DNA from: Sulfurimonas sp.
Lineage (GTDB): Bacteria > Campylobacterota > Campylobacteria > Campylobacterales > Sulfurimonadaceae
DNA length: 64,000 nt
Direction: 5' to 3'
NCBI RefSeq assembly: GCF_041563035.1
Contig: NZ_JBFFNS010000013.1
Coordinates: 9,353-73,352 of the forward strand
Position numbers and translations under genes: made by a program. Below, piece after piece: positions 35,567 to 62,540 of this stretch (position 1 is its first letter; the number at the start of each line of letters is the position of its first letter). The notes beneath the pieces are model-generated. The model saw only the letters and a program-made list of their open reading frames with translations. It had not been told where the DNA came from and did no database searches.

Positions 35567-35821
35567 CTAGAGTTTAATATCTAACTTATTTATTTTTTGT
35601 CTTTCTGTAGATCGAAGAAAAGCTATATTTTTTTTAATTTTATTCATGGAGATTTTCGTCTCATCTTGAAGTGTATATAAAAGCTCGGTAGCTTCTTTGA
35701 GAAGGTAAATTGCCTGTTCAACCTCTTCTGCTTCACTTAATTCTGGAATATCATCCAAAAGCGCATCTAAAGCGTCAGTGTTTTTTTCAATAATGGCTAT
35801 TTTTAATTTAGTTAGCCACAT
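35567..35821 (-). CDS. Small helical flagellar protein downstream of fliS (FliT-like)
   Basis: 84 aa helical protein overlapping the fliS stop; occupies the position of fliT in fliD-fliS-fliT operons. Confidence 0.55.
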   Translation of the reverse strand: MWLTKLKIAIIEKNTDALDALLDDIPELSEAEEVEQAIYLLKEATELLYTLQDETKISMNKIKKNIAFLRSTERQKINKLDIKL

Positions 35822-36182
35822 TATTAGTTTCTCTCCAAGCGTCTAAAAGACCTCTGAAAACATTACTAACCTCATCAAGTTGTTCAATATTCTTTTCAAC
35901 TCCAGCAGATGCTAAAAGTTGAATCTGATAGTTGTAAAGACCTTCTAAATATGTAGCAACGTCACCTTGGGAAGTGTCCAAAACTAAAATAAGCTCGGTA
36001 ATAATAGCTATAGAACGATTTGTCCAATAAACTCTTTTTTCAATATCACCATCTTTGATAGCTTTTTTTGCTTGTGCATTAAAACGAAGAACACCCTCAT
36101 AAAGCATCTCTATAAGTTTTGCCGGAGACTCGATTCCTACATTGTTTTGTGCATAAATATTATGAGCATTACTACCATACAT
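35808..36182 (-). CDS. fliS: Flagellin export chaperone FliS
   Basis: ESPAKLIEMLYEG and LEGLYNY motifs; ATG at 36182 with an AAGGA RBS. Confidence 0.93.
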   Translation of the reverse strand: MYGSNAHNIYAQNNVGIESPAKLIEMLYEGVLRFNAQAKKAIKDGDIEKRVYWTNRSIAIITELILVLDTSQGDVATYLEGLYNYQIQLLASAGVEKNIEQLDEVSNVFRGLLDAWRETNNVAN

Positions 36183-36228
36183 GTTAGATCCTTTTTTACC
36201 ATCTTTACTAATTTCTTTCATGATAAAT

Positions 36229-36255
36229 ATATCGACATTTCAAATACTATCTTTA
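36229..36255 (-). promoter_or_regulatory. Sigma28 (FliA) promoter upstream of fliS
   Basis: TAAA-N15-GTCGATAT with exact 15-bp spacing. Confidence 0.78.
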
Positions 36256-36272
36256 GCTATTTTCCTACAAAT

Positions 36273-37649
36273 TTAGCTATTTTGTGCTGCTGTTTGAGCA
36301 TTTGCTATCTGAGCAAACATTGATGATGCTGAGTTTAGTTTACTTATTATCAAATCATAAGCAGCAAATCTTCTTGCCATGATTTCATATTTAGATTCCA
36401 GTCTCTCATTTGCCAATGTTTTTTTATCTTCAAGAGAACTAATAGAGTCTGTAATAGAGCTTTTTAATTGATCTAATGTAGCATCATATTTTGTATATTC
36501 CTCTATTTTGGTTGCATATTCATTAAATGCACCATCTAACTCTGTAGTTGTACCATCTCCATTATCAAAAGTTCCTCCGGCAAAAAAAGCTTCTACATTT
36601 GCAGAATTTTCATCCATTTTTGTAGTTAAAACATCTTTATCAAGTGTCATAACCCCTTCTTTATCTACATCAAAACCATAATCAATTAACGAACCAACAC
36701 CGCCGCCTATACTTTGTACCATATCCTCAATAGTAGACAACATATTTTTTATAGTACTTTCAGAAGAGAATGAACCTCTAGTTTCACTATCTACACTTGA
36801 CAATACCATCTTTTTAATGCCAGATACAGATTCATTGTATTTTTCTACAAAACTATCAAATTTTGCCATTATTGTTTCGCGGTCTTGAGATATATTCACT
36901 TGAGATGTACCAACTTCTTTTAAAGTGATACTTACTCCACTAAGTAAATCATCTACAGTATTACTTGTACGAGATATAGGTAACCCATTAAATGTAAAAG
37001 CTGCATTGACACCACTCTGAATGGCAGCTGCATCAAAATCAGTACTTAACTTTGAGTCTATTGTACCAGTTACATCTGTGATCGTAATATTTTGTGTTGT
37101 ACCCGTATCAGCGGAGCTTATAAATAGTCTAAAATCAGTAGCACCGATTTGGACAACTGTTGCATCTACTTTATCTCCGGCGACATCATTTATCAAGGCT
37201 TTTAACTCTTTAAGTGTAGTCGTATCTGTATAATCTATTGCAAAATCTTGACCATCAATATTTAAATTTATTTGTCCTGCGCCACCAGACACTAAAGCAT
37301 CCTCGCTAGCAAATGAACCAGACTGCTCTATTTGTTTTGTAGCTAAAGTTGTAACATTTAGACTGAAATCTTGTATATCACTACCTGCAGCCGCTGTTAC
37401 AGCTACTGATGTCCCAGTTATTTCAGCCCCTCTTTCGTCATACAAACTACTGCTATTTAGTTCATTAATACTATCTATTAGATTTGTCATATACGAATCT
37501 ATAACTTCCAAGTCATCCTGTTTTTTATTTTCAACAGTAAGCTTGCTACTAATAGGAGTAACATACTTAGCATTATCCGCAGCTCTAAGTTGATCAATAA
37601 CATCTTGAGTTAATATACTTGAACCAGCTCCTAGTGAACTAATACCCAT
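36273..37649 (-). CDS. fliD: Flagellar filament capping protein
   Basis: MGISSLGAGSSILTQDVIDQL N-terminus, SRTSNTVDDL, FVEKYNE, and C-terminal RFAAYD..ISKLNS. Confidence 0.93.
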   Translation of the reverse strand: MGISSLGAGSSILTQDVIDQLRAADNAKYVTPISSKLTVENKKQDDLEVIDSYMTNLIDSINELNSSSLYDERGAEITGTSVAVTAAAGSDIQDFSLNVTTLATKQIEQSGSFASEDALVSGGAGQINLNIDGQDFAIDYTDTTTLKELKALINDVAGDKVDATVVQIGATDFRLFISSADTGTTQNITITDVTGTIDSKLSTDFDAAAIQSGVNAAFTFNGLPISRTSNTVDDLLSGVSITLKEVGTSQVNISQDRETIMAKFDSFVEKYNESVSGIKKMVLSSVDSETRGSFSSESTIKNMLSTIEDMVQSIGGGVGSLIDYGFDVDKEGVMTLDKDVLTTKMDENSANVEAFFAGGTFDNGDGTTTELDGAFNEYATKIEEYTKYDATLDQLKSSITDSISSLEDKKTLANERLESKYEIMARRFAAYDLIISKLNSASSMFAQIANAQTAAQNS

Positions 37650-37796: not shown

Positions 37797-38837
37797 ATGA
37801 ATAAACTGATAATACAAGGCAGAGAGGTTAGCAAAGAGACTAAACCACTCATCATCGTCGAAATCGGAATAAATCATAATGGAGATTTAAATGAAGCATT
37901 TAAGCTAGTTGATGCAGCCCATGCTTCAGGTGCTGAAATAATAAAGCATCAAACTCATGTAGTTGAAGATGAGATGAGCAAAGAAGCAAAAAAAGTCATC
38001 CCTGGAAATGCAGATATTTCTATATATGACATTATGGAGCAGTGCGCTTTAAATGAAGAAGATGAGATAAAACTAAAAGAGTATGTTGAATCAAAAGGTA
38101 TGATATTTATCAGCACTCCTTTTTCAAGAGCAGCAGCTGACAGATTAGAAAAAATGGGCGTAAAAGCCTATAAAATAGGTTCAGGAGAGTGTAACAACTA
38201 CCCGCTTATAGAGCATATTGCTTCTTTTGGCAAGCCTATGATTGTCAGCACTGGGATGAATGATATAGCATCCGTAAGAAAAACTGTTGAGATTTTAGAG
38301 AAATATAGAGTGCCTTATGCTCTTCTTCATACAACTAACCTTTACCCTACTCCATCTCACCTTGTAAGACTTGGCGCTATGCAAGAACTCATGATAGAGT
38401 TTCCAGAAGCGATAATAGGACTTTCAGATCATACTACTTCAAATCTTGCATGCTTTAGTGCCACAGCACTTGGTGCCTGCATCTTGGAAAGACACTTTAC
38501 AGACAACATGAGTAGAATCGGTCCAGATATTATAAATTCCATGGATCCAAAAGCTTTAAGTGAATTAATAGAGGGCAGTGCTGAAATAGTAAAGATGCGC
38601 GGTGGTAAAAAAGAAGCTGCTGCAGAAGAGCAAGTTACAATAGACTTTGCTTTTGCTACAGTTGTTACAATTAAGCCTGTAAAAAAAGGTGAACTCTTTA
38701 CAAAGGAAAACATCTGGGTAAAAAGACCTGGAACCGGAGAAATACAAGCCCAATATTATGATGATGTACTTGGAAAAGTATCATTAAAGGATCTGGAAAA
38801 TGACGAACATCTATCATGGAGCGATATTGATGAGTAA
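37797..38837 (+). CDS. neuB: Nonulosonic acid (N-acetylneuraminate-family) synthase
   Basis: [30 protein letters not shown] and ERHFT motifs; C-terminal SAF domain (VKRPGTG). Confidence 0.92.
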
Positions 38838-40020
38838 TATTCTCAGTCTGATTGGAAGAGAAAAAGAGCTTTTTATATCAGACATCTCATCTCATGAAGA
38901 AAAACTCACATCCACAGTATCAAGTTCATCTTTTTTAGTAATCGGTGGAGCTGGATCTATTGGTCAAGCGGTAGTAAAAGAGATATTTAAAAGAGACCCT
39001 AAAAAACTCCATGTAGTAGACATTAGTGAAAACAATATAGTCGAACTAGTTCGTGATATACGAAGCTCTCTTGGTTATATAAATGGTGATTTTAAAACTT
39101 TTGCTCTTGATATTGGAAGTGTAGAATACGATGCATTTATAAATTCTGATGGCAAATATGATTATGTTTTAAACCTATCTGCGCTTAAACATGTGAGAAG
39201 TGAAGAAGACCAATACACACTTATGCGAATGATAGATGTAAATATTTTTAACACTGACAAAACACTAGCCCAATCTATACAAAAACGAACTAAAAAGTAC
39301 TTTTGTGTATCAACAGATAAAGCTGCAAATCCTGTAAATATGATGGGTGCGAGTAAAAGAATTATGGAGATGTTTTTAATGCGCAGAAGCAAGTACATCA
39401 AAATATCTACTGCAAGATTTGCAAATGTTGCATTTTCAGACGGTTCACTTCTGCATGGCTTTAATAAACGTATAGAGAAGAGACAGCCAATAGTCGCTCC
39501 AAACGATATAAAACGTTATTTTGTAACTCCCAAAGAGAGCGGTGAGCTATGTCTTATGTCTTGCATCTTTGGTCAAAACCGTGATATATTTTTTCCAAAA
39601 CTCAGTGAAGATCTGCATCTCATCTCTTTTGCAGATATCGCAGTAAAGTATCTTGAAGACTTTGGCTATACGCCATATATTTGTAAAAGCGAAGATGAAG
39701 CCAGAGAGTTAATCAAGACTCTTCCTGAGCAAGGGAAATGGCCATGTCTATTTACATCTAGTGACACAACAGGTGAAAAAGACTTTGAAGAGTTCTATAC
39801 AGAGAATGAAACTCTTGATATGCAAAAGTTTAACAACTTAGGAATCATCAAAAATGACCCTATTTATGATGAAGTAAAACTAAATAATTTTACTCAAAAG
39901 ATAAAAGAGTTTAAACAAAAACTGATTTGGTCAAAAGAAAATATAAAAAAAGAGTTCTTCAAACTAATCCCTGATTTCACTCATAAAGAAACGGGTAAAT
40001 ATCTTGATTCAAAGATGTAA
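38830..40020 (+). CDS. NDP-GlcNAc 4,6-dehydratase (LegB/LgaA-like)
   Basis: [42 protein letters not shown] and [12 protein letters not shown] motifs. ATG at 38830 is preferred as the start. Confidence 0.85.
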
Positions 40021-40037
40021 AAAAGGAAAACTGTAAA

Positions 40038-41171
40038 ATGAAAATATTAACACTTGTTGAAAGACGAGCAGACTACTCTAGAATGAGACCTATACTAAAA
40101 GAGTTGTACAAAGATCCTTTCTTTGATGTTCATTTAGTAGTTACCGGTATATGTCTTCTTGATATTCATGGTAGTGATATTGATTACATCAAAGAAGATG
40201 GCTTTAAGATAAACGCACAGCTTGAGATGTTTGAACCAAACACGAGGAATACAAATGCTTCAATGGTTAAAGCACTAAGCAAAATTATGAGTTCTATGAC
40301 TGATGAACTTGAAAAAGTCAAACCTGACTTAGTCCTTACAGGCTTCGATATAGGTGCCAACCTTGCAACAACTATAGCAGCGGCTCATATGAATATACCT
40401 GTAGCCCACATACAAGGTGGTGAAGTAACTGGAAGTATTGATGAGAGCATCAGACACGCCATGAGTAAATTTGCTCATATTCACTTTCCCGCAACTGAAG
40501 ATGCTAGACAAAGACTGATAAGGCTAGGTGAAAACTCGGACTATGTTTTTAATGTAGGTTGTCCATCAATTGACACAATCATGCAAACTCCTATCATAGA
40601 CAAAAGTATACTAGAGAAAAAGTTTAATGTTGACTTCTCAAAACCAACAATTTTACTTATCCAGCATCCGGTTACAACTGAGAGTTCTGAATCAAAAAGA
40701 CAGATTTTAAATACTATAGAAGTTATTAAAGATTTAGGTGTTCAAGCTCTTGTAGCTCTTCCAAACAATGATGCAGGATCTTCAGATATTATAGATGAGA
40801 TTAAAAACTCTGGACTTAGCTGGTACCCTAGTCTCTCCACTGAAGAGTTTATAAATGTATATAGAAATATCTGGGCTATAGTAGGAAACTCTAGCTCAGG
40901 GATTCATGAATCTTCTACATTCGGCATACCTGCTGTAAATATAGGTACAAGACAACAAGACAGAGAAAGAGCAGATAATGTTATAGACGTATCTTACGAT
41001 AAAGCAGATATCAAAGCAGGTATAGAAAAAGCACTTTTTGATGCTGATACAAGAGAAAAGGCTAAACATACACATAATCCATACGGAGAAGGTGAATCTG
41101 CAAAAGCGATAGTAAAGATCTTAAAAACTGTCTCACTTGAAGGCATAGTTCAAAAGAGGTTTTATGAGTAG
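40038..41171 (+). CDS. neuC: Hydrolysing NDP-N-acetylglucosamine 2-epimerase (NeuC/LegG)
   Basis: RADYS, HIQGGEVTGSIDESIRHA, IQHPVT, PNNDAG and GNSSSG motifs. Confidence 0.9.
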   Translation: MKILTLVERRADYSRMRPILKELYKDPFFDVHLVVTGICLLDIHGSDIDYIKEDGFKINAQLEMFEPNTRNTNASMVKALSKIMSSMTDELEKVKPDLVLTGFDIGANLATTIAAAHMNIPVAHIQGGEVTGSIDESIRHAMSKFAHIHFPATEDARQRLIRLGENSDYVFNVGCPSIDTIMQTPIIDKSILEKKFNVDFSKPTILLIQHPVTTESSESKRQILNTIEVIKDLGVQALVALPNNDAGSSDIIDEIKNSGLSWYPSLSTEEFINVYRNIWAIVGNSSSGIHESSTFGIPAVNIGTRQQDRERADNVIDVSYDKADIKAGIEKALFDADTREKAKHTHNPYGEGESAKAIVKILKTVSLEGIVQKRFYE

Positions 41172-42015
41172 CATCCTAATTTTAGGAGCAAGTGGATTAC
41201 TTGGTCGTACTTTAGTAGATTTCTTCAAAGATAAAAATCACACTATAGGTGTGCTATGTAGAAATCCAATACACTATACGGAGCCAAATATAGATGTTTA
41301 TAGTGTTGATATACTAGAGTATAACTCACTTGATTCTATAATACAGAAGTATGAAACTATTATAAACTGTACAGGTCAAATAACAAACCCCATAAACCTC
41401 TCTCTTTTACTAAATACAGATGGTATAAGCAATATTGTAAAAGCTGTAAAAAAACATGATAAAAGACTAATACATATCTCATCTGTAGCAGTTTACGGTG
41501 AAGCTGAATATGTCAATGAAGAGAGTCCTATAAACCCGCAAACTCCTTATGGGAGCTTCAAATATTTCTCAGAGTATCTAGTTAGAGGCAGTTTAGAAAA
41601 CTACTCTATTTTGAGGGTCTCTAACCTATTTGGAAAACACCAGGAAAAGGGAATCATTAGTTATCTGACAAAAAGTTATTTAAATAACACGCCTAATGTG
41701 CATTTTAATAATGATGGCAGTTTAAAACGCTACTATTTACATATAGAAGATTTATCGTCAACAATTAATCAAATAATCAGTAAAAATCTTAATGGTACTT
41801 ATAATATTATTGGCAATGAATGTTTAAGTATAAAAGAGTTAGTACATATGTTTGAAGATATTCTAGAGTATAAATATTATGTAGAATATTCAAAAGACTC
41901 GGCTATAGAAAATATAGATAAGATAGATGATTTTAAAATTCATAATATTACAAAAAAAGCTTTAAATGTCGATGTACTGGAGTATATTAAGGACTTAAAA
42001 AATGAAATCTTTTAA
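41164..42015 (+). CDS. NAD-dependent epimerase/dehydratase/reductase (extended SDR)
   Basis: GASGLLG, HISSVAVYG and YGSFK (YxxxK) motifs. Confidence 0.82.
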   Translation: MSSILILGASGLLGRTLVDFFKDKNHTIGVLCRNPIHYTEPNIDVYSVDILEYNSLDSIIQKYETIINCTGQITNPINLSLLLNTDGISNIVKAVKKHDKRLIHISSVAVYGEAEYVNEESPINPQTPYGSFKYFSEYLVRGSLENYSILRVSNLFGKHQEKGIISYLTKSYLNNTPNVHFNNDGSLKRYYLHIEDLSSTINQIISKNLNGTYNIIGNECLSIKELVHMFEDILEYKYYVEYSKDSAIENIDKIDDFKIHNITKKALNVDVLEYIKDLKNEIF

Positions 42016-43084
42016 AAAACTTATACTAGGTAAGAACTCCACTATAAAAGATGCTCTTAGAATTATAGATAATGGTAAGATGAGGATTGCCTTAGTCGTA
42101 AAAGAGGATAATAAGCTGATTGGTACTATTTCAGATGGAGATTTAAGAAGAGCATTTTTAACAGGTGCGACAATTGATGATTCTATCGAAAAGTTAATAT
42201 TTAAAAATTTTATCTATGCGGCAGTTGGTGATTCAAAAGAGAAGCTCATTCAGCTTGCCAAGCATAATAATATATATATTATCCCGATTGTTGATAAGAA
42301 CTTTATTTTACTTGGCATAGAAGAGGTCAATGACTTAATTACGCTTAAAAAATATGACAACAAAGTTGTACTTATGGCAGGAGGTCTGGGAACAAGGCTT
42401 AAGCCACTTACTGATAATATGCCAAAACCATTATTAAAAGTTGGCAATAAACCAATTCTTGAAACTATTATAGAGAATTTTTCTAAATACGGATTTAAAG
42501 ACTTTATTTTAAGCGTTAACTATAAATCAGAGATGATTAAAGAGTATTTTGGTGATGGAAAACGTTTTGGGGTAAGTATAGAATACATTATGGAAGATAA
42601 GAGAATGGGTACAGCCGGTGCTCTATCTCTGATGAAAGAAAAATTAACAAATAATTTCTTTGTAATGAATGGGGATTTATTAACAAATATCAATTATGAG
42701 CATCTTCTAAATTACCATATCAATGAAAAAGCTGATGCCACGATGTGTGTAAAGGAGTATGATTTTCAGATACCTTATGGGGTTGTAACTATTGATAATA
42801 ATAATATAACAGAAATAAGTGAAAAACCATTACACAAGTTTTTTGTCAATGCGGGAATATATATTTTAAACAACAGTGTACTAAAATATATACCGGAGAA
42901 AGAGTTTTTAGACATGCCAATTCTTTTTGATGAAATCATTAAACATAAAAACAAAAGCATCTCTTTCCCTATTAGAGAGTATTGGCTAGATATTGGTGAA
43001 ATTGAAGAATATAAAAAAGCAAATATAGAATATATAGACATTTTTGAAGAAAATATTAATGATAACGACATTAAGCAAAGGTAA
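42002..43084 (+). CDS. CBS-domain sugar-1-phosphate nucleotidyltransferase (LegX/PtmE-like)
   Basis: Two CBS domains followed by MAGGLGTRLKPLT..PKPLL, GTAGAL, VNAGIY and WLDIG. Confidence 0.88.
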   Translation: MKSFKKLILGKNSTIKDALRIIDNGKMRIALVVKEDNKLIGTISDGDLRRAFLTGATIDDSIEKLIFKNFIYAAVGDSKEKLIQLAKHNNIYIIPIVDKNFILLGIEEVNDLITLKKYDNKVVLMAGGLGTRLKPLTDNMPKPLLKVGNKPILETIIENFSKYGFKDFILSVNYKSEMIKEYFGDGKRFGVSIEYIMEDKRMGTAGALSLMKEKLTNNFFVMNGDLLTNINYEHLLNYHINEKADATMCVKEYDFQIPYGVVTIDNNNITEISEKPLHKFFVNAGIYILNNSVLKYIPEKEFLDMPILFDEIIKHKNKSISFPIREYWLDIGEIEEYKKANIEYIDIFEENINDNDIKQR

Positions 43085-43087
43085 TAT

Positions 43088-43783
43088 ATGGAGGAGAAGA
43101 TATTAGCTATTATTCCAGCAAGGGCAGGTTCTAAAGGAATAAAAGATAAAAATATAATCAACTTAAATTCAAAACCATTAATTGCGTGGAGCATAGAAGC
43201 AAGTACAAAATCAAAATTCATAACAAAAACAATAGTGAGTTCAGATGCTGACAATATACTAGATATAGCCAAACAGTATGGTGCTTCAACAATAAGACGA
43301 CCAGACAATTTGGCACTAGATTCAACACCTAGTGAAGATGTGATAAAACATACAATTGATTTATTAGAAAATGAAAATGAAATTTATGATTACTTAATCC
43401 TACTTCAACCAACATCGCCTATAAGAGATCAAAATGATATAGATAAGGCCTTTTCAAATTTATTTAAAACAGATGCAAATGCTCTTATTAGCGTATATAA
43501 AGAGGATAGTAAAATCCTAAAAACATTTAAAGAAAATAAAAACGGATATATAGAAGGCATCTCTAACAACGATTTTCCATTTATGCCAAGACAAAGCCTG
43601 CCTCCCGTTTATATGAGTAATGGGGCAATATATATTATTAAAGTTTCAGAGTTTTCAAAAACTAAAAAACTATTCACAGACAAAACAATCTTCTATGAGA
43701 TGTCAAAAAGAAGAAGTATAGATATTGACAGCTTATCCGATTTGAATGAAGCCAAAAAACAATTAGATGGAGAAAATATATGA
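43088..43783 (+). CDS. neuA: Acylneuraminate cytidylyltransferase (NeuA/LegF)
   Basis: IPARAGSKGIKDKN, LLQPTSP, NGAIY and SIDID motifs. Confidence 0.9.
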   Translation: MEEKILAIIPARAGSKGIKDKNIINLNSKPLIAWSIEASTKSKFITKTIVSSDADNILDIAKQYGASTIRRPDNLALDSTPSEDVIKHTIDLLENENEIYDYLILLQPTSPIRDQNDIDKAFSNLFKTDANALISVYKEDSKILKTFKENKNGYIEGISNNDFPFMPRQSLPPVYMSNGAIYIIKVSEFSKTKKLFTDKTIFYEMSKRRSIDIDSLSDLNEAKKQLDGENI

Positions 43784-45915
43784 TCTACACACAAAATGTA
43801 TACGTATTTGACTCTCAAAGTGCTTTATATGCTTCGCAAAACACTAAAGACAAAAATCAGATATTTTTTTATGATGGTCAAAAGCTACCTAATGAGCCTG
43901 ACAAGTGTATAAATGTTCCTATAGATGATTTTATAAACTATTTTTGTACATCTTCACATGCTTACCCTGAAGAACTAAATTTTGATAATATGGATTTTTC
44001 TGATGAGATAATAAATCAAATTATTAAGAACTTGACAAATGCTCTTTCTACAGTTAAAGAGAAAAGAGAGAGATATCTTAATAAAGTATTATTAGAAGAA
44101 TTCTCCTCTGAGAATGTAGATAAGTCAATATATACAATTCTTGAGTATATTAAAATAAACAATTTAATATACTCAGAGGTTCCATTTGAAGTTGTGTATA
44201 AACTTCTTGAGGCAACCGTTTATACAAAATCTAAAAATATTTCACTCTCACAAGAAACCATAAAAATAGTAAAAGAGCTAAGTGAAAACTCAAAAGATTT
44301 TAATAATAATTTTTATAATTTTCATATAATACATGTACTCTCACTTTTAAACAATATTTCTGATGATAAAAGATATTTTGATTATCTAGCCTCTTTTTCA
44401 AATCTAGAACAACTAATCAAAGATTTTGCAATAATAAAAATTCTTTACCCTGAGGAAAAGCTCAAAGAGTATATTACATCTTTGAGTACAAGCCTTTTTA
44501 ACCATGAGTTTTGGGACAAAGATATACTAAAACAAAAACATGCAATATTTAAACTCTATTATTTAACAGGAATGTATTATGGTAGAGGAGAGTCATATAA
44601 AGAGATTTTCTACACTTTAAGTAAAGTTTTTTTATCAGCTATTGAAAAGAAAATGGATGAACTTGTATTTTATTTATACACTCCGCTAGCTATGTCATAC
44701 AATGGTGTATCACAGACACAAGAAGAGTTGAAGTTTTTCAACAATACAATAGAGAAACCTCTGGAAAATTTTATATCAGATATTTTAGTACCAAAATACA
44801 AGCTAAAGCAAAACAACAACGTAATTGATAAAAATAAAAAAATAAAAATTGCTTTCTTACAAGAAAGGATAATAAACTACTCTATATACAAAGTGTTTTA
44901 CAGTCTTATAAAATCTATTTCTGAGAATCCATCTTCAAAATATGAATTCATTATATACGACCTTAACTTTAAAGAATTTGGTGGTTCAAACAGCAAAACT
45001 ATTGAGGAGTTAAAAGCTCTTGGAGTTCAATATATTGACCTGCATAAAGAGAGTGTAGGGACTAATGATGAGTTTTATTCCATTATTCAAAAAAGTTTAA
45101 AAATTAGACGAAAGATCATAAAAGATAAAGTCGACATACTAATAGGTATGCACTCCCGCCCTGAATATAATTTTTTGTTTACAACTAGAACAGCGGCAAA
45201 GCAAATATATTGGAGTCATGGGAATCATATGTATGATATAAAAAATATTGACAGGAGAATATCCCATTATCAATATTTGGATTCTCCATATGATTTTCAT
45301 AGTTTTATCATACCAAGGACGTTGGAAAGCTTAAATCCATTTGTAGATTCAAATAAAGTTAAAGAAACTCACTCTTTATATTCAAATGCCACTACTATTC
45401 TAGGTAGTATTGGTCGTTTAACTAAAATGCAGAGTAGAAACTACCTAGAATGTATTAATACCTTGTTATGCAAATATGAAGATAGTGTATTTTTAGCATG
45501 TGGCACAGGGGATAATACAAAAATAAAATCTATCCTTATAGAACTAAATGCTCCAATGGATCGTTTTATTTTCACTGGTCACATTGATGCACACTTGTAT
45601 GGTCATGTTATTGATATACTTTTAAATACTTTTCCTTATGAACAAGGAGAGGCTGTTGCAGAGTTTATCGCAAAAGCGAAACCAGTTGTATCATTAAAGC
45701 CATCAATTGAGCAAATTAAAAGTGAATGTGAAGAAATATATTCAAATATTGAAAAATGCCCATTTGTAAATACTACTACAGAATATATAGATATAGCTAG
45801 TATACTAATTGAAGATGTGGGTTACCGTGAAGAAATAGGTCAATGCAACCTAAGATACATGGAAAAGATATTTTTCAACCAAAAATCTAACTTTGTTCAC
45901 AGTTTAGGAATTTAA
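43780..45915 (+). CDS. Large protein with C-terminal GT41/O-GlcNAc-transferase-like GT-B domain
   Basis: KIAFL, VDILIGM..RTAAKQIYW.HG, LGSIGRLTK and DILLNTFPY.QG align by eye to SPY/OGT catalytic-domain motifs. Confidence 0.65.
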   Translation: MIYTQNVYVFDSQSALYASQNTKDKNQIFFYDGQKLPNEPDKCINVPIDDFINYFCTSSHAYPEELNFDNMDFSDEIINQIIKNLTNALSTVKEKRERYLNKVLLEEFSSENVDKSIYTILEYIKINNLIYSEVPFEVVYKLLEATVYTKSKNISLSQETIKIVKELSENSKDFNNNFYNFHIIHVLSLLNNISDDKRYFDYLASFSNLEQLIKDFAIIKILYPEEKLKEYITSLSTSLFNHEFWDKDILKQKHAIFKLYYLTGMYYGRGESYKEIFYTLSKVFLSAIEKKMDELVFYLYTPLAMSYNGVSQTQEELKFFNNTIEKPLENFISDILVPKYKLKQNNNVIDKNKKIKIAFLQERIINYSIYKVFYSLIKSISENPSSKYEFIIYDLNFKEFGGSNSKTIEELKALGVQYIDLHKESVGTNDEFYSIIQKSLKIRRKIIKDKVDILIGMHSRPEYNFLFTTRTAAKQIYWSHGNHMYDIKNIDRRISHYQYLDSPYDFHSFIIPRTLESLNPFVDSNKVKETHSLYSNATTILGSIGRLTKMQSRNYLECINTLLCKYEDSVFLACGTGDNTKIKSILIELNAPMDRFIFTGHIDAHLYGHVIDILLNTFPYEQGEAVAEFIAKAKPVVSLKPSIEQIKSECEEIYSNIEKCPFVNTTTEYIDIASILIEDVGYREEIGQCNLRYMEKIFFNQKSNFVHSLGI

Positions 45916-46610
45916 TGAAAATTCAAGAAGCTATAGTACTTGCTGGTGGTTTAGGCACCCGTCTGCAACCTGTTATCCATGATGTTCCAAAACCTCTTGC
46001 TCCAATTAATGGAATTCCTTTTTTGACATATTTATTGGACTCTTTAAATCAACAAAATATTACACATGTAGTTTTAGCAGTAGGATATATGCATGAAAAG
46101 ATTCAACAGCTGTATAATAACAAATATAAAAATATAGATATAACATATAGCATAGAAGATAAAGCTCTTCAAACGGGTGGAGCAATAAAAAAAGCTCTAA
46201 AATATACTAAAGACAAACATATATGTATATGCAATGGGGATACTTTTTTTCAATGTGATATTAATACTTTATTTACAAAACATATATCCCTTAATGCCGA
46301 TATAAGTGTTGCAAGTAAACGTATGAAATCTTTTAATCGTTACGGGCAACTAATAACAGATAATGATAAAGTTATAAAACTTGAAGAAAAAAAACAATGT
46401 GCGGATGGCTTAATAAATGCTGGTGTATATATAATCAATAGAGACTTATTGAATATGCAAACTCAAAATAGTTTCTCATTTGAATACTTTTTACAAAACA
46501 ATGTAAATAATATTTCATTTATTCATAATACTTTTGATCGATATTTTATCGACATCGGCATACCCGAAGACTACAAAAAAGCAGAAATAGATTTTAAGGA
46601 GTTATTTTGA
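45915..46610 (+). CDS. hddC: Heptose-1-phosphate guanylyltransferase (HddC-like)
   Basis: LAGGLGTRL..VPKPLAP, LQTGGA, NGDTF, INAGVY and FIDIGIPEDY motifs; adjacent to a GHMP kinase. Confidence 0.72.
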   Translation: MKIQEAIVLAGGLGTRLQPVIHDVPKPLAPINGIPFLTYLLDSLNQQNITHVVLAVGYMHEKIQQLYNNKYKNIDITYSIEDKALQTGGAIKKALKYTKDKHICICNGDTFFQCDINTLFTKHISLNADISVASKRMKSFNRYGQLITDNDKVIKLEEKKQCADGLINAGVYIINRDLLNMQTQNSFSFEYFLQNNVNNISFIHNTFDRYFIDIGIPEDYKKAEIDFKELF

Positions 46611-47602
46611 TAGTATCACGAACACCGTATAGAATCTCTTTTTTTGGTGGTGGAACAGATTATCCAAACTATTACTTAAAGCATGGTGGAAAAACACTTG
46701 GGGTTGCCATCAATAAATACTCTTATCTAAACATCAGAAAACTACCTCAATTTTTTGACTATAAACACCGTATTGTATATTCTAAGCAAGAAAACTGTAA
46801 ATCTATTTCTGAGATAGTGCATCCATCTGTTAGAGAAGTTCTTAAATTTTTAGATGTTAAAGAAGGCTTATCCATTCATCATGATGGTGATATACCGGCA
46901 AGAAGCGGTATGGGATCAAGTTCATCTTTTACAGTAGGTCTTCTAAATTCTTTATACGCACTTTATAATCAGAAGAAATCTAAAGATGAACTTATGTATG
47001 AAGCTATACACATTGAACAAAATCTTATAAATGAAAGAGTTGGGTCACAAGATCAAGTATTTGCTTCACATGGTGGTTTTAATATAATAAATTTTAATAA
47101 AGATGGTAAAATCAAAGTCTCTAATTTAAATATTGCAACAGAGCGTTCAGAATTATTAGAAGATAATTTAATGCTATTTTTCAGTGGTTTATCTAGAACA
47201 GCTTCCGAAATAGTAGCTGAACAGATTGAAAAAACAGAGCAAAATACTACTAACCTACATAGTATGAAATCACTTGTTGATGATGCTTGCAATATTTTAA
47301 ATTCCGAATGTGATTTAAAGCAGTTTGGGGAGCTTTTAAATGATACGTGGAAACTCAAAAAAAGTCTTTCAACTAAAATTACTAATTCAACAATAGAAGA
47401 AATATATCAACGAGCGATGGAAGCCGGTGCTATTGGCGGTAAACTTTTAGGAGCTGGTGGAGGTGGTTTTTTAGTTTTTTATGTAGAAAAGCTATTTCAA
47501 CAAGAAGTCAAAGATGCTTTAAAAGATTATCTTCATATTCCATTTAAATTTGAGTATGAAGGTTCTAAAATTATCATAAACGAACCAAACTATGCAGGAT
47601 AA
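46607..47602 (+). CDS. hddA: GHMP sugar kinase (D-glycero-D-manno-heptose-7-phosphate kinase-like)
   Basis: RTPYRISFFGGGTD, PARSGMGSSSS, GSQDQ and GGKLLGAGGGGF motifs. Confidence 0.78.
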   Translation: MIVSRTPYRISFFGGGTDYPNYYLKHGGKTLGVAINKYSYLNIRKLPQFFDYKHRIVYSKQENCKSISEIVHPSVREVLKFLDVKEGLSIHHDGDIPARSGMGSSSSFTVGLLNSLYALYNQKKSKDELMYEAIHIEQNLINERVGSQDQVFASHGGFNIINFNKDGKIKVSNLNIATERSELLEDNLMLFFSGLSRTASEIVAEQIEKTEQNTTNLHSMKSLVDDACNILNSECDLKQFGELLNDTWKLKKSLSTKITNSTIEEIYQRAMEAGAIGGKLLGAGGGGFLVFYVEKLFQQEVKDALKDYLHIPFKFEYEGSKIIINEPNYAG

Positions 47603-47605
47603 ATA

Positions 47606-48766
47606 ATGAACTATAAACTAGCCTACTCTACATTTGGACAAGAAGAAAAAGATGCTATGTACAAGGTTATTGATAGTGATATATTTAGTATGGGCAAAAA
47701 TGTTAAAGAGTTTGAATCAGAATTTGCAATATTTTTTGGAAAGAAATATGCTGTAATGGTTAACTCAGGCTCTTCCGCAAATCTCGTAGCCTTAGCATCA
47801 CTTTTTTATAAACAAGAATCTCCACTAAAAAAAGGTGATGAAGTAATAGTTCCATGCATCTCATGGGCTACTACTTTCTACCCTCTACAACAATATGGCC
47901 TTAAATTAAAGTTTGTAGATATAGAGCTTGAAACACTTAATTATGACATCAAGCAACTCAAAGCATCTATTACTGAAAATACTAAAATGATTGTTACAGT
48001 TTCTGTTTTGGGAAACCCATGTTATTTTGATGAGATTGAAGAACTTTGCAAAAAAAACAATATTATACTTTTTGATGATAATTGTGAGAGCATGGGTGCT
48101 GAATATAATGGAAAGTTTACTGGTACATCTGGTTTACTCAATACATTTTCTACATTTTTTTCTCATCATATGTCTACGATGGAAGGTGGTCTAATTTTAA
48201 CCGATGACAAAGAGATTTACTCACTATGTAAATCTCTTAGAAATCATGGCTGGACAAGAGATCAGGATAGTGATAGTGAAATTTATCAAAAGAAAGATGA
48301 TGATTTTTTTGAAGCATATCGATTTATTTTACCTGGTTACAATGTTCGTCCAGGGGAATTACAAGGTGCATTGGGTTTGCAACAAATAAAAAAACTTCCA
48401 TCTATGATAAAACAAAGAAGAAAAAATGCTTTATACTTTCAATCTAAATTCAAAGACGACAAAAGATTTATTATTCAAAAAGAAGTTGGCAAAAGTTCTT
48501 GGTTTAGTTTTACACTGATACTACATCCTAAAGCAAATATTCAAAAAAAATCTCTTTTTAAAAAATTACAAGATTCAAATATTGAGTTTAGAATTATTAC
48601 AGGTGGAAACTTTTTAGAGCATGATGTTATTCGCTACTTTGATTATGAAGTAGTTAGTGATAAAAATGCAAGTTATGCACATAATAACGGTTTCTTTGTT
48701 GGTAATGCACCTACAGATTTAACTAAAGAGATAGACTATTTATACAATACACTAAAGGAATTATAA
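47606..48766 (+). CDS. PLP-dependent GDP-4-keto-6-deoxy-sugar 3-dehydratase (ColD-like)
   Basis: DegT fold with FSTFFSHHMSTMEGG: His replaces the usual PLP-binding Lys, as in ColD. Also VNSGSSANL and LRNHGW. Confidence 0.8.
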   Translation: MNYKLAYSTFGQEEKDAMYKVIDSDIFSMGKNVKEFESEFAIFFGKKYAVMVNSGSSANLVALASLFYKQESPLKKGDEVIVPCISWATTFYPLQQYGLKLKFVDIELETLNYDIKQLKASITENTKMIVTVSVLGNPCYFDEIEELCKKNNIILFDDNCESMGAEYNGKFTGTSGLLNTFSTFFSHHMSTMEGGLILTDDKEIYSLCKSLRNHGWTRDQDSDSEIYQKKDDDFFEAYRFILPGYNVRPGELQGALGLQQIKKLPSMIKQRRKNALYFQSKFKDDKRFIIQKEVGKSSWFSFTLILHPKANIQKKSLFKKLQDSNIEFRIITGGNFLEHDVIRYFDYEVVSDKNASYAHNNGFFVGNAPTDLTKEIDYLYNTLKEL

Positions 48767-49701
48767 TGGCAAATATATTAGTAACAGGTGGTGCAGGTTA
48801 TTTAGGTTCTGTTATGGTTCCAGAGTTATTAAAGCTGGGTCATAAGGTCACTGTTCTAGATACATTTATGTTTAGTCAAAATTCACTTTCTGATGTATGT
48901 CATATGGATAATTTCAATGTAGTGAAAGGTGATTCTAGAGATAAAAAACTTTTAAAATCATTAACAAAAGATAAAGATATAGTTATCCCATTAGCTGCAC
49001 TTGTTGGGGCTCCATTATGTAATCGTGACATGATAGGGACTGTTACAACTAATAAAGATGCTATTCAAACATTATCAGATGTTCTTTCAAAAGAACAACG
49101 TGTTTTAATGCCAATTACCAATAGTGGATATGGTGTTGGACAAGATGGAATCTATTGTACAGAAGAGACACCTCTTAACCCTATATCTACTTATGGACAA
49201 ACTAAAGTAGATGCAGAGAAAATAATACTAGAGAGAGAGAACTCTATAAGTTTTAGACTTGCAACAGTATTTGGTATGAGTTCAAGAATGAGACTAGACT
49301 TACTCGTTAACGATTTTACGTATAGAGCTGTAAATGATGGTTTTATTGTAATATTTGAAGGTCATTTTAAAAGAAATTATATTCACATTCGTGATGTTGC
49401 AAATGCTTTTATCCATGGAATAGATAATTTTGATACTATGAAAGGTGAAGCTTACAATGTAGGTTTATCAGATGCTAACCTTTCTAAACTTGAGCTTTGT
49501 GAAATTATTAAAAAACAAGTTCCAAACTTTACAATTATGGAAGCTGAAATTGGACAAGATCCTGACCAGAGAAATTATATAGTTTCAAATGACAAGATAG
49601 AAGCTACTGGCTTTAAACCAAAGTTTAGCCTCGATATGGGTATAAAAGAGCTTTTAAAAGGTTATACAATAATAAATAATAGTAAGTTTGCTAATGTTTA
49701 A
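48766..49701 (+). CDS. NAD-dependent epimerase/dehydratase
   Basis: TGGAGYLGS, LAALVG, YGQTK and FRLATVFG motifs. Confidence 0.85.
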   Translation: MANILVTGGAGYLGSVMVPELLKLGHKVTVLDTFMFSQNSLSDVCHMDNFNVVKGDSRDKKLLKSLTKDKDIVIPLAALVGAPLCNRDMIGTVTTNKDAIQTLSDVLSKEQRVLMPITNSGYGVGQDGIYCTEETPLNPISTYGQTKVDAEKIILERENSISFRLATVFGMSSRMRLDLLVNDFTYRAVNDGFIVIFEGHFKRNYIHIRDVANAFIHGIDNFDTMKGEAYNVGLSDANLSKLELCEIIKKQVPNFTIMEAEIGQDPDQRNYIVSNDKIEATGFKPKFSLDMGIKELLKGYTIINNSKFANV

Positions 49702-50635
49702 TCAAAATTCTAAAATATATGTGGCCGGACATACTGGTTTACTTGGTAGTGCTTTAATAAAAGTACTTAAAAAATATGAATATAAAAATATTATTACTAA
49801 GTCACATGCAGAATTAGAATTAACTGACAAATCAAAGGTTGAGGATTTTTTTAAAAAAAATAAAATCAACTTTATATTTTTATGTGCAGGTAAAGTTGGT
49901 GGAATAATTGGAAATAAAGCTAGTCCAGCTTCATATTTACATGAAAATTTATTGATTCAAGATAACATATTTGAAATGGCAAATAAATATGATGTAGAAA
50001 ATATTATTTTTTATGGCTCATCTTGCACTTATCCAAAAGTTTGTAAACAACCAATGAAAGAAGAATACTGGCTTAGTGGCGCTTTAGAAGAAACTAGTAT
50101 GGGTTATGCAGCAGCAAAAATTGCTGGAATTATTGGATGTAAATCATATAATACTCAATATAACACAGATAGATTTATTTGTGTTATACCGAACTCTATC
50201 TATGGACCAAATGACAACTTTGATTTAGAAAATTCTCATGTACTCTCAGCTCTTATAAAAAAAATAGATATTGCAAAAGAACAAAATCAAGATAGCTTAA
50301 CTCTTTGGGGCAGTGGAAAGCCAAGAAGAGAGTTTATACATAGTGAAGATGTAGCAAATGCTTCAGTATTTTTAATGCAAAATGTGCACAAACTAGAAAA
50401 TAGGCATTATAATTTAGGTTCTGGAACTGATTATTCTATCAAAGAATTATCTGAAGCTATTTCTAAAATAGTTGGTTATAAGGGTAAAATAGAATGGGAT
50501 ATAGAGAAACCAGATGGTACTATGAAAAAACTCTTAGACAGTAGTAAGTTTTTAGCACTTGGTTGGAAACCAAAAATTAAATTTGAAGATGGATTAAGGT
50601 CAACTTACCGATGGTATAAGGACAATTATGAGTAA
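49688..50635 (+). CDS. fcl: GDP-L-fucose synthase-like epimerase/reductase (Fcl/ColC)
   Basis: AGHTGLLGS, AGKVGGI, GSSCTYP, YAAAK, PNSIYGPNDNF, HVLSAL and WGSGKPRREF motifs. Confidence 0.82.
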   Translation: MLMFNQNSKIYVAGHTGLLGSALIKVLKKYEYKNIITKSHAELELTDKSKVEDFFKKNKINFIFLCAGKVGGIIGNKASPASYLHENLLIQDNIFEMANKYDVENIIFYGSSCTYPKVCKQPMKEEYWLSGALEETSMGYAAAKIAGIIGCKSYNTQYNTDRFICVIPNSIYGPNDNFDLENSHVLSALIKKIDIAKEQNQDSLTLWGSGKPRREFIHSEDVANASVFLMQNVHKLENRHYNLGSGTDYSIKELSEAISKIVGYKGKIEWDIEKPDGTMKKLLDSSKFLALGWKPKIKFEDGLRSTYRWYKDNYE

Positions 50636-51455
50636 AAAACAACTGCTTAAAGACAAATCAAAATTTATAAGATGTGAAACTCTTAAAATACATAAATTGG
50701 CACCTGAAACAAGAGTAGCTTCATCCTTATCTCCTATTGAAATTTTTGTATCTTTATATTATGGAGATATATTAAATTTCAATCCAAAAGATCCAAGAGA
50801 TGATAGTAGAGACAGGTTTATTATCTCTAAGGGACATGGTTCTATCTCTATGTATCCTTTACTTGCAGATGTCGGTTTTTTTGATAAAAATGAATTAAGC
50901 AATGTATGTAAGAATGGTTCATTTTTAGGTGGTATTCCTGATCCAATTATTCCTGGATATGAAACAGTAAATGGATCTTTAGGTCATGGACTTGGTGTAG
51001 GGTGTGGAATGGCAGTTGCACTCAAAACAAAACAAAACAAACAAAATGTTGTAGTTCTTACTGGTGATGGTGAACTCAATGAAGGTTCAAACTGGGAAGC
51101 TATTATGTTCGCCCCTCAACATAAACTTGATAATCTTACTTTAATAGTCGATTATAATAAGGTATCTATGCTTGACTTTAGTAAAAATATCATTAATATG
51201 AGCTCACTCAATGATAAGTTTAAAGCATTTAACTGGAAAGTTTATGAAATAATAGATGGACACGATGTAGAAGAAATTTCTACTACATTAAAAGAAGCTA
51301 TTCAAGACAGAGACACTAAACCAAAAGTTGTAATTGTAAATACTATAAAAGGAAAAGGTGTGCCATTTTTAGAAACACACTCTTTAAGTCATATACTATC
51401 AGTTAAATCAGAAGATATTGATGCCTTAATAGAAGAGATTCAAAATGCAGATTAA
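50628..51455 (+). CDS. Transketolase-like protein, N-terminal TPP-binding subunit
   Basis: DRFIISKGH, GSLGHGLG, GDGELNEG..WEA and TIKGKG motifs. Confidence 0.88.
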   Translation: MSKKQLLKDKSKFIRCETLKIHKLAPETRVASSLSPIEIFVSLYYGDILNFNPKDPRDDSRDRFIISKGHGSISMYPLLADVGFFDKNELSNVCKNGSFLGGIPDPIIPGYETVNGSLGHGLGVGCGMAVALKTKQNKQNVVVLTGDGELNEGSNWEAIMFAPQHKLDNLTLIVDYNKVSMLDFSKNIINMSSLNDKFKAFNWKVYEIIDGHDVEEISTTLKEAIQDRDTKPKVVIVNTIKGKGVPFLETHSLSHILSVKSEDIDALIEEIQNAD

Positions 51456-52365
51456 AGCTATGAGGGATACTTTTTTAACTTCTTTATATGAGAAGATGAA
51501 AAATGATAAAAGCATATTTTTTGTTACAGCTGATTTTGGTGCTCCTGTCTTGGATAAGATAAGAGAGGATTATCCTGATCGATTTATAAACGTAGGTATA
51601 GCTGAACAAAATCTTATTAATGTAACTACTGGTTTAGCTTTAGAGGGCTTCACTGTATATGCTTATGCTATTGCACCATTTATAACAATGAGATGCTATG
51701 AACAAATAAGGGTAAATATATCTGTCTTGTCTCATGTGAGAGAAATGAATATTAATCTTATTGGAGTTGGAGCAGGAGTTAGTTATGCGATGAGTGGACC
51801 TACTCATCACTGCTTAGAAGATTTATCTATAATGAAAACTTTGCCAAATATGGAAGTGTTTTCTCCCAGTGACTATATGATTGCTGAGTCTTATGTAGAT
51901 AGAACATTAAGCATTAAAAAACCAAAGTATATAAGATTTGATGCTAAGCCAATGATTGCCTTAGAAGAAACAATTGAAAACTTCGATAATGGATTTAGAG
52001 TTTTACAAAAGGGCAAAAAAATAGCTATTATTTCTACTGGATATATGAGCCAAAAAGCTAAAGAGATAGTAAAAGATTTTGATATTGCACTTATCGATTT
52101 ATACTTTATTAACAATTATAATAAGAGTAAACTAGAAGAATCTCTAAGAGATATCGATACTATTATAACTATTGAAGAAGCATTTAAAAATAGTGGTGGT
52201 TTAGATGCAGAGATAAACTTCAACTTTAAAGATAAAAAAATAGTTAACCTTGGATTTGAAAAAAAATATACCTTTGAGATTGGAAGTAGAGAGTTTGTTC
52301 ATAAAGAAAATGGACTGGGTGTTGATGACATTATTTTTGAAATAAAAAAAGTCTTACAGTGTTAG
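51445..52365 (+). CDS. Transketolase-like protein, C-terminal (pyrimidine-binding) subunit
   Basis: NVGIAEQN, RCYEQIR, GPTHH, YIRF and TIEE motifs. Confidence 0.88.
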   Translation: MQIKAMRDTFLTSLYEKMKNDKSIFFVTADFGAPVLDKIREDYPDRFINVGIAEQNLINVTTGLALEGFTVYAYAIAPFITMRCYEQIRVNISVLSHVREMNINLIGVGAGVSYAMSGPTHHCLEDLSIMKTLPNMEVFSPSDYMIAESYVDRTLSIKKPKYIRFDAKPMIALEETIENFDNGFRVLQKGKKIAIISTGYMSQKAKEIVKDFDIALIDLYFINNYNKSKLEESLRDIDTIITIEEAFKNSGGLDAEINFNFKDKKIVNLGFEKKYTFEIGSREFVHKENGLGVDDIIFEIKKVLQC

Positions 52366-62529: not shown

Positions 62530-62540
62530 GAGAGATAATT

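Follow-up and report, generated by a model that had tools for sequence, protein, structure and literature searches.

A Sulfurimonas gene cassette of mixed legionaminic and sialic acid lineages, predicted to make a 9-deoxy sialic acid

We analyzed a 64,000-nucleotide stretch of a Sulfurimonas genome (positions 9353-73352 of contig NZ_JBFFNS010000013.1, here C13; the whole stretch is hereafter called the window, and positions are those of the window unless a contig or locus is named). Within it, at 37797-43783, lies a six-gene cassette that probably encodes a hybrid nonulosonate pathway, in which a front end of the legionaminic acid type and a back end of the sialic acid type would together yield the cytidine monophosphate (CMP) ester of a 5-acetamido-3,5,9-trideoxy-nonulosonate. 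Where legionaminic acid clusters encode an aminotransferase and an acetyltransferase, the cassette encodes an extended short-chain dehydrogenase/reductase (SDR), and its NeuC-type epimerase belongs to a separate lineage seen only next to this SDR. With less assurance, we lean toward a broader reading: that the product is a natural, previously undescribed sialic acid, namely 9-deoxy-N-acetylneuraminic acid (9-deoxy-Neu5Ac), or a 5-acetamidino form of it in relatives bearing HisF/HisH-like genes; that its mosaic pathway has as its signature a 4-ketoreductase together with a third lineage of 2-epimerase; and that the module has spread horizontally among flagellin-glycosylation and lipopolysaccharide (LPS)/capsule loci of Campylobacterota, a gammaproteobacterium and several unassigned metagenomic contigs.

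Results

Gene content of the cassette

The source genome (2.8 Mb, 54 contigs) is 100% complete, and Sulfurimonas gotlandica GD1 provides the closest matches to the proteins of the window. An initial annotation of the window, made from its letters and open reading frames, had described a nonulosonate cassette of six genes, and Pfam and NCBIfam matches bore out both its composition and its coordinates. All six genes are on the + strand, in the order neuB, 4,6-dehydratase, neuC, SDR, CBS-domain nucleotidyltransferase and neuA. In the list below, NDP denotes nucleoside diphosphate, GlcNAc N-acetylglucosamine and HexNAc N-acetylhexosamine; NeuB* and NeuC* are the synthase and epimerase of the cassette and their lineages.

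37797-38837, + strand: NeuB* synthase, 346 amino acids (PF03102 and SAF; TIGR03569, 387.9 bits, slightly below the cut-off of 399.65)
38830-40020, + strand: NDP-GlcNAc 4,6-dehydratase of the LgaA/3pvz type, 396 amino acids (PF02719, Polysacc_synt_2; 700.7 bits to PDB 3pvz)
40038-41171, + strand: NeuC*, predicted hydrolyzing NDP-HexNAc 2-epimerase, 377 amino acids (TIGR03568, 383.6 bits, cut-off 235.9)
41164-42015, + strand: extended SDR, predicted NADPH-dependent NDP-4-keto-6-deoxy-HexNAc 4-reductase, 283 amino acids (PF01370, RmlD_sub_bind)
42002-43084, + strand: CBS-domain sugar-1-phosphate nucleotidyltransferase, PtmE-like, 360 amino acids (PF00571 and PF00483, NTP_transferase)
43088-43783, + strand: NeuA-type CMP-nonulosonate synthetase, 231 amino acids (PF02348, CTP_transf_3; TIGR03584 PseF, 153.8 bits, under the cut-off)

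Spacing is tight: neighboring genes overlap by 8, 8, 14 and 4 nucleotides or are separated by gaps of 17 and 3 nucleotides. The open reading frame of the dehydratase opens already at 38800, and its homologues begin at the position corresponding to 38830. For the nucleotidyltransferase, the family given in the initial annotation (CBS plus NTP_transferase, PtmE-like) stands, although the name used there, LegX, is not standard. The annotation had also remarked that the cassette includes neither LegC nor LegH, and with Pfam and NCBIfam we likewise detected no gene for a DegT-family protein or for a hexapeptide or GNAT acetyltransferase within 37797-43783.

Three types of nonulosonate module

Comparison with about 100 related loci (designated by L numbers) distinguished three types of module. 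Type A, in 77 loci, has the gene order dehydratase, DegT, (acetyltransferase), NeuB-like, NeuC-like, CBS-nucleotidyltransferase and NeuA, and is the canonical legionaminic acid cluster with its dehydratase, LegC, acetyltransferase, LegI and LegG. It includes the Escherichia coli loci L091 and L092, in both of which the second gene is annotated in RefSeq as 'LegC family aminotransferase'; L092, which lies beside galF, is an O-antigen cluster. Type C is a plain NeuB-NeuC-NeuA module with neither dehydratase nor SDR, seen in 14 loci of the NeuB* lineage whose neighborhoods were read (L106, L107 and L138-L149). Type B, a rare type, comprises 11 loci, namely the window, L001 (S. gotlandica-like), L003 (Ca. 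Endonucleobacter, Gammaproteobacteria), L085, L086, L087, L104, L105 and three Joint Genome Institute (JGI) contigs. Where the context is readable, the type B block consists of NeuB*, dehydratase, NeuC* and SDR together with the CBS-nucleotidyltransferase and NeuA, save that the dehydratase is missing from the block of L105. No aminotransferase or acetyltransferase gene was found inside the block in any of the 11 loci. Amino acid identities to the window proteins were as follows.

Dehydratase: type A 77-85%; type B 71-90%; type C absent
NeuB: type A (LegI) 28-37%; type B 75-83%; type C 64-81%
NeuC: type A (LegG) 28-35%; type B 75-98%; type C (canonical NeuC, 13 loci) 29-35%

Homologues of the CBS-nucleotidyltransferase occur in clusters of type A (34-59% identity) and of type B (44-81%), and NeuA is 38-63% identical to NeuA of the other type B loci. 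The contexts of type B modules are either flagellar (Maf, flagellin) or LPS/capsule-like (ABC transporter, Lept_O_ant_chp1, PFTS_polysacc). Type B loci often contain in addition HisF-like and HisH-like genes and a gene for a protein of about 409 residues; the window has none of these, and one of the JGI contigs carries the same minimal version of the module. By the lineages of its genes, type B is a mosaic of a legionaminic front end, made up of nucleotidyltransferase and dehydratase, and a sialic acid synthase, bridged by the SDR and NeuC*.

Lineages of the shared enzymes

The cassette dehydratase matched PDB 3pvz, deposited as 'UDP-GlcNAc 4,6-dehydratase' of Vibrio fischeri. The type A identities in the list above refer to the gene that opens each of 72 canonical legionaminic-type clusters, and in a tree of the dehydratases the cluster types were intermixed, with no separation among them. 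The PseB model TIGR03589 gave 70.3 bits against a cut-off of 407.75, and the protein is thus not PseB. The dehydratase is of the legionaminic acid type, and because it is shared with type A and its sequences are intermixed with those of type A, the same first committed intermediate as in the legionaminic route is expected. Its relatives in 80 species-representative genomes, which belong to Campylobacterota, Gammaproteobacteria, Bacteroidota and Desulfobacterota, share 77-85% identity with it. As a separate observation, this 396-residue enzyme is unusually conserved, at 77-85% among Campylobacterota, Enterobacteriaceae, Vibrionaceae, Flavobacteriaceae and Desulfobacterota (loci L004-L083), whereas its cluster neighbors are at 28-59%.

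NeuB* is 62% identical to NeuB of Neisseria meningitidis, a biochemically defined Neu5Ac synthase, and the residues that we take to form the active site of the latter are conserved. In the tree, type B and type C NeuB sequences were intermixed in a single clade (support 100/100) that includes the N. meningitidis enzyme, and LegI fell outside. From its place in the Neu5Ac synthase clade, far from LegI, the substrate of NeuB* should resemble N-acetylmannosamine (ManNAc) and not a 4-acetamido sugar. The NeuB* lineage was present in 59 of 401 sampled Campylobacterota genomes; a blastn search of E. coli genomes with the neuB gene gave no match.

The NeuC tree resolved into three clean clades, corresponding to type A (support 93/87), type B (100/100) and type C (100/100). 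The NeuC* lineage was seen only in type B, alongside the SDR, with an overlap between the two genes at each type B locus. No orthologue of NeuC* was found in 400 gammaproteobacterial genomes, in which the best match was 39% identical. A clade that is equidistant from LegG and canonical NeuC fits an epimerase with a third substrate.

The SDR as a candidate 4-ketoreductase

The SDR had 173 detectable homologues in a collection of 5.8 billion proteins. It occurs only beside NeuC*, overlapping the NeuC* stop codon, and was found in one of the 401 Campylobacterota genomes, which is the source genome itself. Across 16 family members (47-85% identity), the residues G8-x-x-G11-x-x-G14, R33, S106, Y129 and K133 are invariant. 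In the AlphaFold model, R33 follows directly after strand beta2 (residues 27-32). SDRs with a basic residue in this position usually use NADP(H), and an acidic residue is found there in epimerases and dehydratases that retain NAD+; Arg33 thus suggests that the SDR uses NADPH. The catalytic Ser lies in the motif SSVAVYG, which does not have the Asp-Glu pair of 4,6-dehydratases, and the Cys/His pair of the GDP-fucose synthase type is absent from beside this Ser. The possibility that the SDR is a LegB-type dehydratase was rejected on the missing Asp/Glu pair and a score of 45 bits against the LegB model TIGR04180.

The AlphaFold2 model (mean predicted local distance difference test score 91.3) superposes on NDP-sugar SDRs with a template modeling score of about 0.86 at ~20% identity. 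The matches from a fold search represent the generic NDP-sugar SDR fold, and include 4-epimerases, dehydratases and decarboxylases. The modeled fold confirms a nucleotide-sugar substrate while leaving the reaction unfixed. Taking motifs and context together, the SDR is most likely a 4-ketoreductase.

Proposed pathway and alternatives

We infer the pathway throughout, that is, every enzymatic step, the nucleotide, the order of reduction and condensation and all stereochemistry, from the observed gene content, lineages, module conservation and SDR motifs. The CBS-nucleotidyltransferase would form NDP-GlcNAc, in which the nucleotide is probably guanosine diphosphate (GDP) by analogy to Campylobacter jejuni PtmE, and the dehydratase would convert this into NDP-2-acetamido-2,6-dideoxy-hexos-4-ulose as in the legionaminic pathway. 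At the point where LegC and LegH would aminate and acetylate, the SDR would reduce C4 with NADPH to give an NDP-6-deoxy-HexNAc, most simply that of N-acetylquinovosamine (QuiNAc). NeuC* would then hydrolyze and 2-epimerize this compound to 6-deoxy-ManNAc, NeuB* would condense the latter with phosphoenolpyruvate (PEP) to 5-acetamido-3,5,9-trideoxy-non-2-ulosonic acid, and NeuA would form the CMP ester. Transfer of the acid to flagellin is assigned tentatively to a 711-residue protein encoded next to neuA, to the Maf protein at the end of the gene run (both described below), or to both. The initial annotation had proposed a 5-acetamido-3,5,9-trideoxy acid with a hydroxyl group at C7; this remains the most economical predicted product, in view of an SDR in the place of the aminotransferase and acetyltransferase in 11 loci, the lack of any LegC-family protein above the cut-off in the genome, the reductase motifs and a NeuC* lineage specific to SDR loci.

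A different use of the same genes would be the synthesis of two products, in which NeuC*, NeuB* and NeuA make CMP-Neu5Ac from uridine diphosphate (UDP)-GlcNAc, and the nucleotidyltransferase, dehydratase and SDR make a separate NDP-6-deoxy-HexNAc, QuiNAc or N-acetylfucosamine (FucNAc), as a second glycan building block. A 4,6-dehydratase followed by a 4-reductase is indeed the known route to UDP-QuiNAc and UDP-FucNAc (qnr/fnr, PMC9676051), the window contains a GT1-like gene and many more sugar genes downstream of the cassette, and the similarity of NeuB* to the N. meningitidis enzyme and its intermixing with synthases of canonical clusters would be as expected. We consider such a division unlikely, however, as it leaves unexplained why in every SDR locus NeuC* has replaced canonical NeuC, the partner of the NeuB lineage in 13 canonical loci. 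It equally leaves unexplained the interleaved gene order and the case of the metagenomic locus L105 (5831-16843), in which NeuB*, NeuC*, SDR, HisF/H-like and NeuA genes form the block and the single dehydratase is situated 5 kb downstream, heading genes of the LegI/LegG lineage: here the SDR has stayed with NeuC* and not with the remote dehydratase. L105 looks like two nonulosonate branches drawing on one 4,6-dehydratase and one 4-keto branch point. Finally, Maf proteins are the only transferases in the flagellar loci L001 and L087, so that no other use for the product of the dehydratase and SDR is visible there, and NDP-QuiNAc would have no glycosyltransferase besides Maf.

If the hybrid pathway operates, the configuration at C7 of its product depends on the face of C4 reduction. 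NeuB* resembles synthases that use ManNAc, and the dehydratase is that of the legionaminic route, which has the D-glycero-D-galacto configuration; the simplest prediction is therefore the D-glycero-D-galacto isomer, 9-deoxy-Neu5Ac (C11H19NO8, calculated residue mass 275.10 Da), the 7-hydroxy counterpart of Leg5Ac (5-N-acetyllegionaminic acid). Reduction after condensation would give the same product. Versions of the pathway with other stereochemistry or step order would proceed through the FucNAc (galacto) epimer, involve additional epimerization at C3/C5, or reduce a 7-keto nonulosonate after condensation to a 7-epi or 8-epi trideoxy acid. The fold and motifs of the SDR do not fix the hydride face, NeuC* is a new lineage, so that its substrate may have another configuration, and 8-epi-legionaminic acid is reported from V. 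fischeri, the species from which the 3pvz dehydratase comes. The likeness of NeuB* to ManNAc-using synthases nonetheless favors the manno configuration at C2-C5, and the Cys/His pair of the GDP-fucose synthase type is lacking from the SDR; we regard these versions as improbable.

Search for amination genes

A six-frame search of the whole genome for the LegC family (TIGR04181) gave a best score of 206 bits against a cut-off of 420, and no protein passed. The same approach detected five full-length genes of the DegT fold. The first, DegT1 (47606-48766), lies 4 kb downstream of the cassette and was not mentioned in the initial annotation. It scored 447 bits to ColD and has His in place of the Lys that binds pyridoxal phosphate (FFSHH compared with FYPGK), so that by sequence it is a ColD-type 3-dehydratase of the neighboring GDP-sugar cassette and not an aminotransferase; as a candidate for the missing aminotransferase it was rejected on these grounds. 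The second, DegT2 (60984-62069), is followed by a hexapeptide acetyltransferase gene (62059-62529), and this is the pair that the annotation had placed 17 kb away in a Gfo/Idh context typical of C3 amination. That description holds: two Gfo/Idh/MocA genes flank the pair, and the best solved relatives of DegT2 are C3-aminotransferases (QdtB, WbpE, 7b0d). We accordingly did not retain DegT2 and its acetyltransferase as LegC and LegH. Of the remaining copies, those on contigs C1 and C34 are in other polysaccharide regions, and the one on C14 is alone and resembles nothing specific. The Ca. Endonucleobacter genome contains DegT genes, one of them 9 kb past the module and apparently beside a PseB-like gene, and a genome-wide absence of aminotransferases cannot be claimed for this organism.

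These results bear on a rival reading in which the product is ordinary legionaminic acid, or one of its epimers, an unlinked aminotransferase and acetyltransferase complete the route, and the SDR epimerizes a legionaminic intermediate or product, as proposed for ElaA in 8-epi-legionaminic acid; epimerization of a legionaminic derivative by the SDR had been the alternative offered in the initial annotation. We judge this very unlikely despite the legionaminic-type dehydratase and nucleotidyltransferase, the genome's four true aminotransferases of the DegT family and its several hexapeptide acetyltransferases (with one such pair in the same gene run) and the oxidoreductases proposed to remodel legionaminic acid in Acinetobacter (PMC9676051), as no protein passes the LegC cut-off, the nearby DegT pair is of the C3 type between Gfo/Idh genes, the LegI and LegG lineages are replaced by a Neu5Ac synthase lineage and a novel epimerase lineage, the amination genes are missing from the block in 11 of 11 type B loci, and genes of the LegI/LegG and NeuB*/NeuC* lineages stand side by side in L105, which implies that they are not redundant.

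Genomic setting of the cassette

Further features of the window that frame the cassette are the following.

35808-37649, - strand: fliS and fliD (FliD_N/FliD_C Pfam matches for 36273-37649; synteny with L001)
43780-45915, + strand: 711-residue protein with no family match, candidate nonulosonate transferase by position
63513-63998, + strand: first part of a gene for Maf (motility accessory factor), which extends past the window to C13:74853

The fliS and fliD genes lie directly upstream of the cassette in divergent orientation, and the syntenic locus L001 has FliS and FliD in the corresponding place. The complete Maf open reading frame (C13:72865-74853) matched the Maf protein of locus L087, which carries PF20157/PF01973, with 641 bits. 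Given fliS and fliD divergently upstream and Maf at the far end, all of the + strand genes from 37797 on make up a flagellin-glycosylation island.

The gene for the 711-residue protein overlaps the neuA stop codon, and the protein gave no sequence match in Pfam, NCBIfam or the PDB. A 622-residue homologue (392 bits) is encoded directly after neuA in the unrelated canonical NeuB-NeuC-NeuA locus L107 (11846-13714), which suggests a conserved association of the 711-residue protein with CMP-nonulosonate synthesis, perhaps as a transferase; its role is assigned from position only.

The rest of the island encodes further sugar pathways. A GDP-sugar cassette at 45915-53825 comprises an HddC-like guanylyltransferase, a GHMP kinase, the ColD-type 3-dehydratase, two SDRs, a split transketolase and a B12-radical SAM enzyme; its product is probably a 3,6-dideoxy or branched (hepto)sugar, which would be an additional decoration of the flagellin glycan. 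At 58162-63506, adh_short, DUF354, Gfo/Idh/MocA, the C3-type DegT aminotransferase, the hexapeptide acetyltransferase and a second Gfo/Idh/MocA gene resemble a set in the style of WbpB/E/D that would make a 2,3-diacetamido sugar, of which DUF354 may be a 2-epimerase-like partner. A paralogous Gfo/DegT/acetyltransferase set is present at C34:3907-6642.

Discussion

Nonulosonic acids, at the outermost tip of the bacterial surface and of flagella, govern what phages, lectins and immune receptors recognize. If the prediction made here is correct, a natural 9-deoxy sialic acid joins the small family that comprises neuraminic acid, Kdn (ketodeoxynonulosonic acid) and the legionaminic, pseudaminic, acinetaminic and fusaminic acids, and bacteria would be seen to make new nonulosonates by splicing pathway halves with one reductase and one re-specialized epimerase. 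The flagellin of this Sulfurimonas would then probably bear an unusual acid, elaborated further by the 20-kb set of sugar genes. The dehydratase, SDR, NeuC*, NeuB* and NeuA would constitute a ready enzyme set for 9-deoxy sialosides. The pair of SDR and NeuC* would also provide a simple genomic marker, given that predictors based on NeuB phylogeny (Neu/Leg/Pse) would file the module as 'Neu5Ac'.

Several points weigh against the hybrid pathway or limit what can be concluded about its product. NeuB* is indistinguishable by sequence from true Neu5Ac synthases and could use ManNAc equally well. Reductases and 4-epimerases are not told apart by the fold search, and the assignment of NADPH to the SDR depends on a single sequence rule. 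The activity of the dehydratase family is itself derived from annotation, homology and context. One of the four true DegT-family aminotransferases of the genome (DegT2 and the copies on C1, C14 and C34) might act in trans. Moreover, the additional sugar genes, which fill 20 kb from neuA to maf, could lead to further modification of the acid, and the final flagellin glycan may differ from the product predicted here.

The logic of the proposed pathway is largely that of the legionaminic pathway, as represented by Acinetobacter LgaA-G, the E. coli O-antigen loci L091/L092 and C. jejuni LegB/C/H/G/I/F with PtmE: NDP-GlcNAc is dehydrated, hydrolyzed with 2-epimerization, condensed with PEP and activated with CMP, and the dehydratase (77-85% identity) and CBS-nucleotidyltransferase are of the same families. 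By contrast, the cassette has the SDR in place of LegC and the acetyltransferase, its epimerase and synthase are not of the LegG and LegI lineages, and C7 is predicted to carry a hydroxyl and not an acetamido group. With the sialic acid pathway (N. meningitidis SiaA/SiaC/SiaB; L106, L107, L138-L149) the cassette shares the synthase lineage and the order of the last three reactions, but it adds a dehydratase, a reductase and a nucleotidyltransferase, its NeuC is in another clade, and its predicted product has no 9-hydroxyl group. The reaction predicted for the SDR is that of UDP-4-keto-6-deoxy-GlcNAc 4-reductases, such as Acinetobacter Qnr/Fnr (listed as 4-reductases in PMC9676051) and the Pseudomonas aeruginosa WbpV/WbpK type, which act on the product of a Polysacc_synt_2 dehydratase. 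This likeness is one of predicted role, and the SDR is distinct in being short (283 residues), RmlD-like by its Pfam match and found solely beside NeuC*.

In the full-text literature, of which our coverage was incomplete, trideoxy or 9-deoxy nonulosonates with gene clusters were represented only by the chemistry of Fusobacterium nucleatum and by synthetic work, and we found no description of the module; a paper on the nab clusters of Vibrionaceae does not describe the type B module either. Natural 3,5,9-trideoxy nonulosonates were encountered there only in F. nucleatum, and 9-deoxy sialosides only as synthetic analogues or as its fusaminic acid. The product is most likely a 9-deoxy sialic acid undescribed in nature, with an earlier description possible given that coverage. 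A 274-Da flagellin sugar of Shewanella oneidensis, the reported formula of which equals that of a 5-acetamidino-9-deoxy acid by our own arithmetic, was dropped as a lead because its authors place it in the pseudaminic family and the genes differ.

The initial annotation had called the product fusaminic-type, and this label holds for constitution only: fusaminic acid, like the predicted product, is a 3,5,9-trideoxy acid with nitrogen at C5 and a hydroxyl group at C7. According to titles cited in two papers (PMC12940168, PMC7371886), fusaminic acid has the L-gluco configuration and occurs with 6-deoxy-L-AltNAc (N-acetylaltrosamine) in F. nucleatum 25586, sugar names that we read as pointing to a PseB-type inverting route; no published gene set for fusaminic acid was found for comparison. 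The dehydratase of the cassette is not PseB, its 2-epimerase is of the NeuC type and its synthase is Neu5Ac-like, and these enzymes point to the Neu/Leg stereochemical series. The 5-acetimidoyl group of fusaminic acid is matched by the putative acetamidino-forming genes (HisF/HisH-like and the ~409-residue protein) of many type B relatives, and not by the window.

Two further arrangements were observed in the course of this comparison. In Halarcobacter ebronensis (L106:9001-14451), canonical NeuB and NeuC genes without dehydratase or SDR are followed by HisF-like, HisH-like and 409-residue protein genes and NeuA; if these three genes form an acetamidino group as in other systems, a 5-acetamidino neuraminic acid would be predicted. 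Contig C1 of the source genome (268708-273910) encodes a true PseB (504 bits), an RmlD-like SDR (314 residues), a NeuB-like synthase (359 residues), a GNAT protein, an aldo-keto reductase and an SpsF-like cytidylyltransferase, with no adjacent aminotransferase, and this combination of PseB, SDR and NeuB-like synthase may be the better candidate for a fusaminic-like route. A module of the same kind follows the type B block in L085 (16855-20846).

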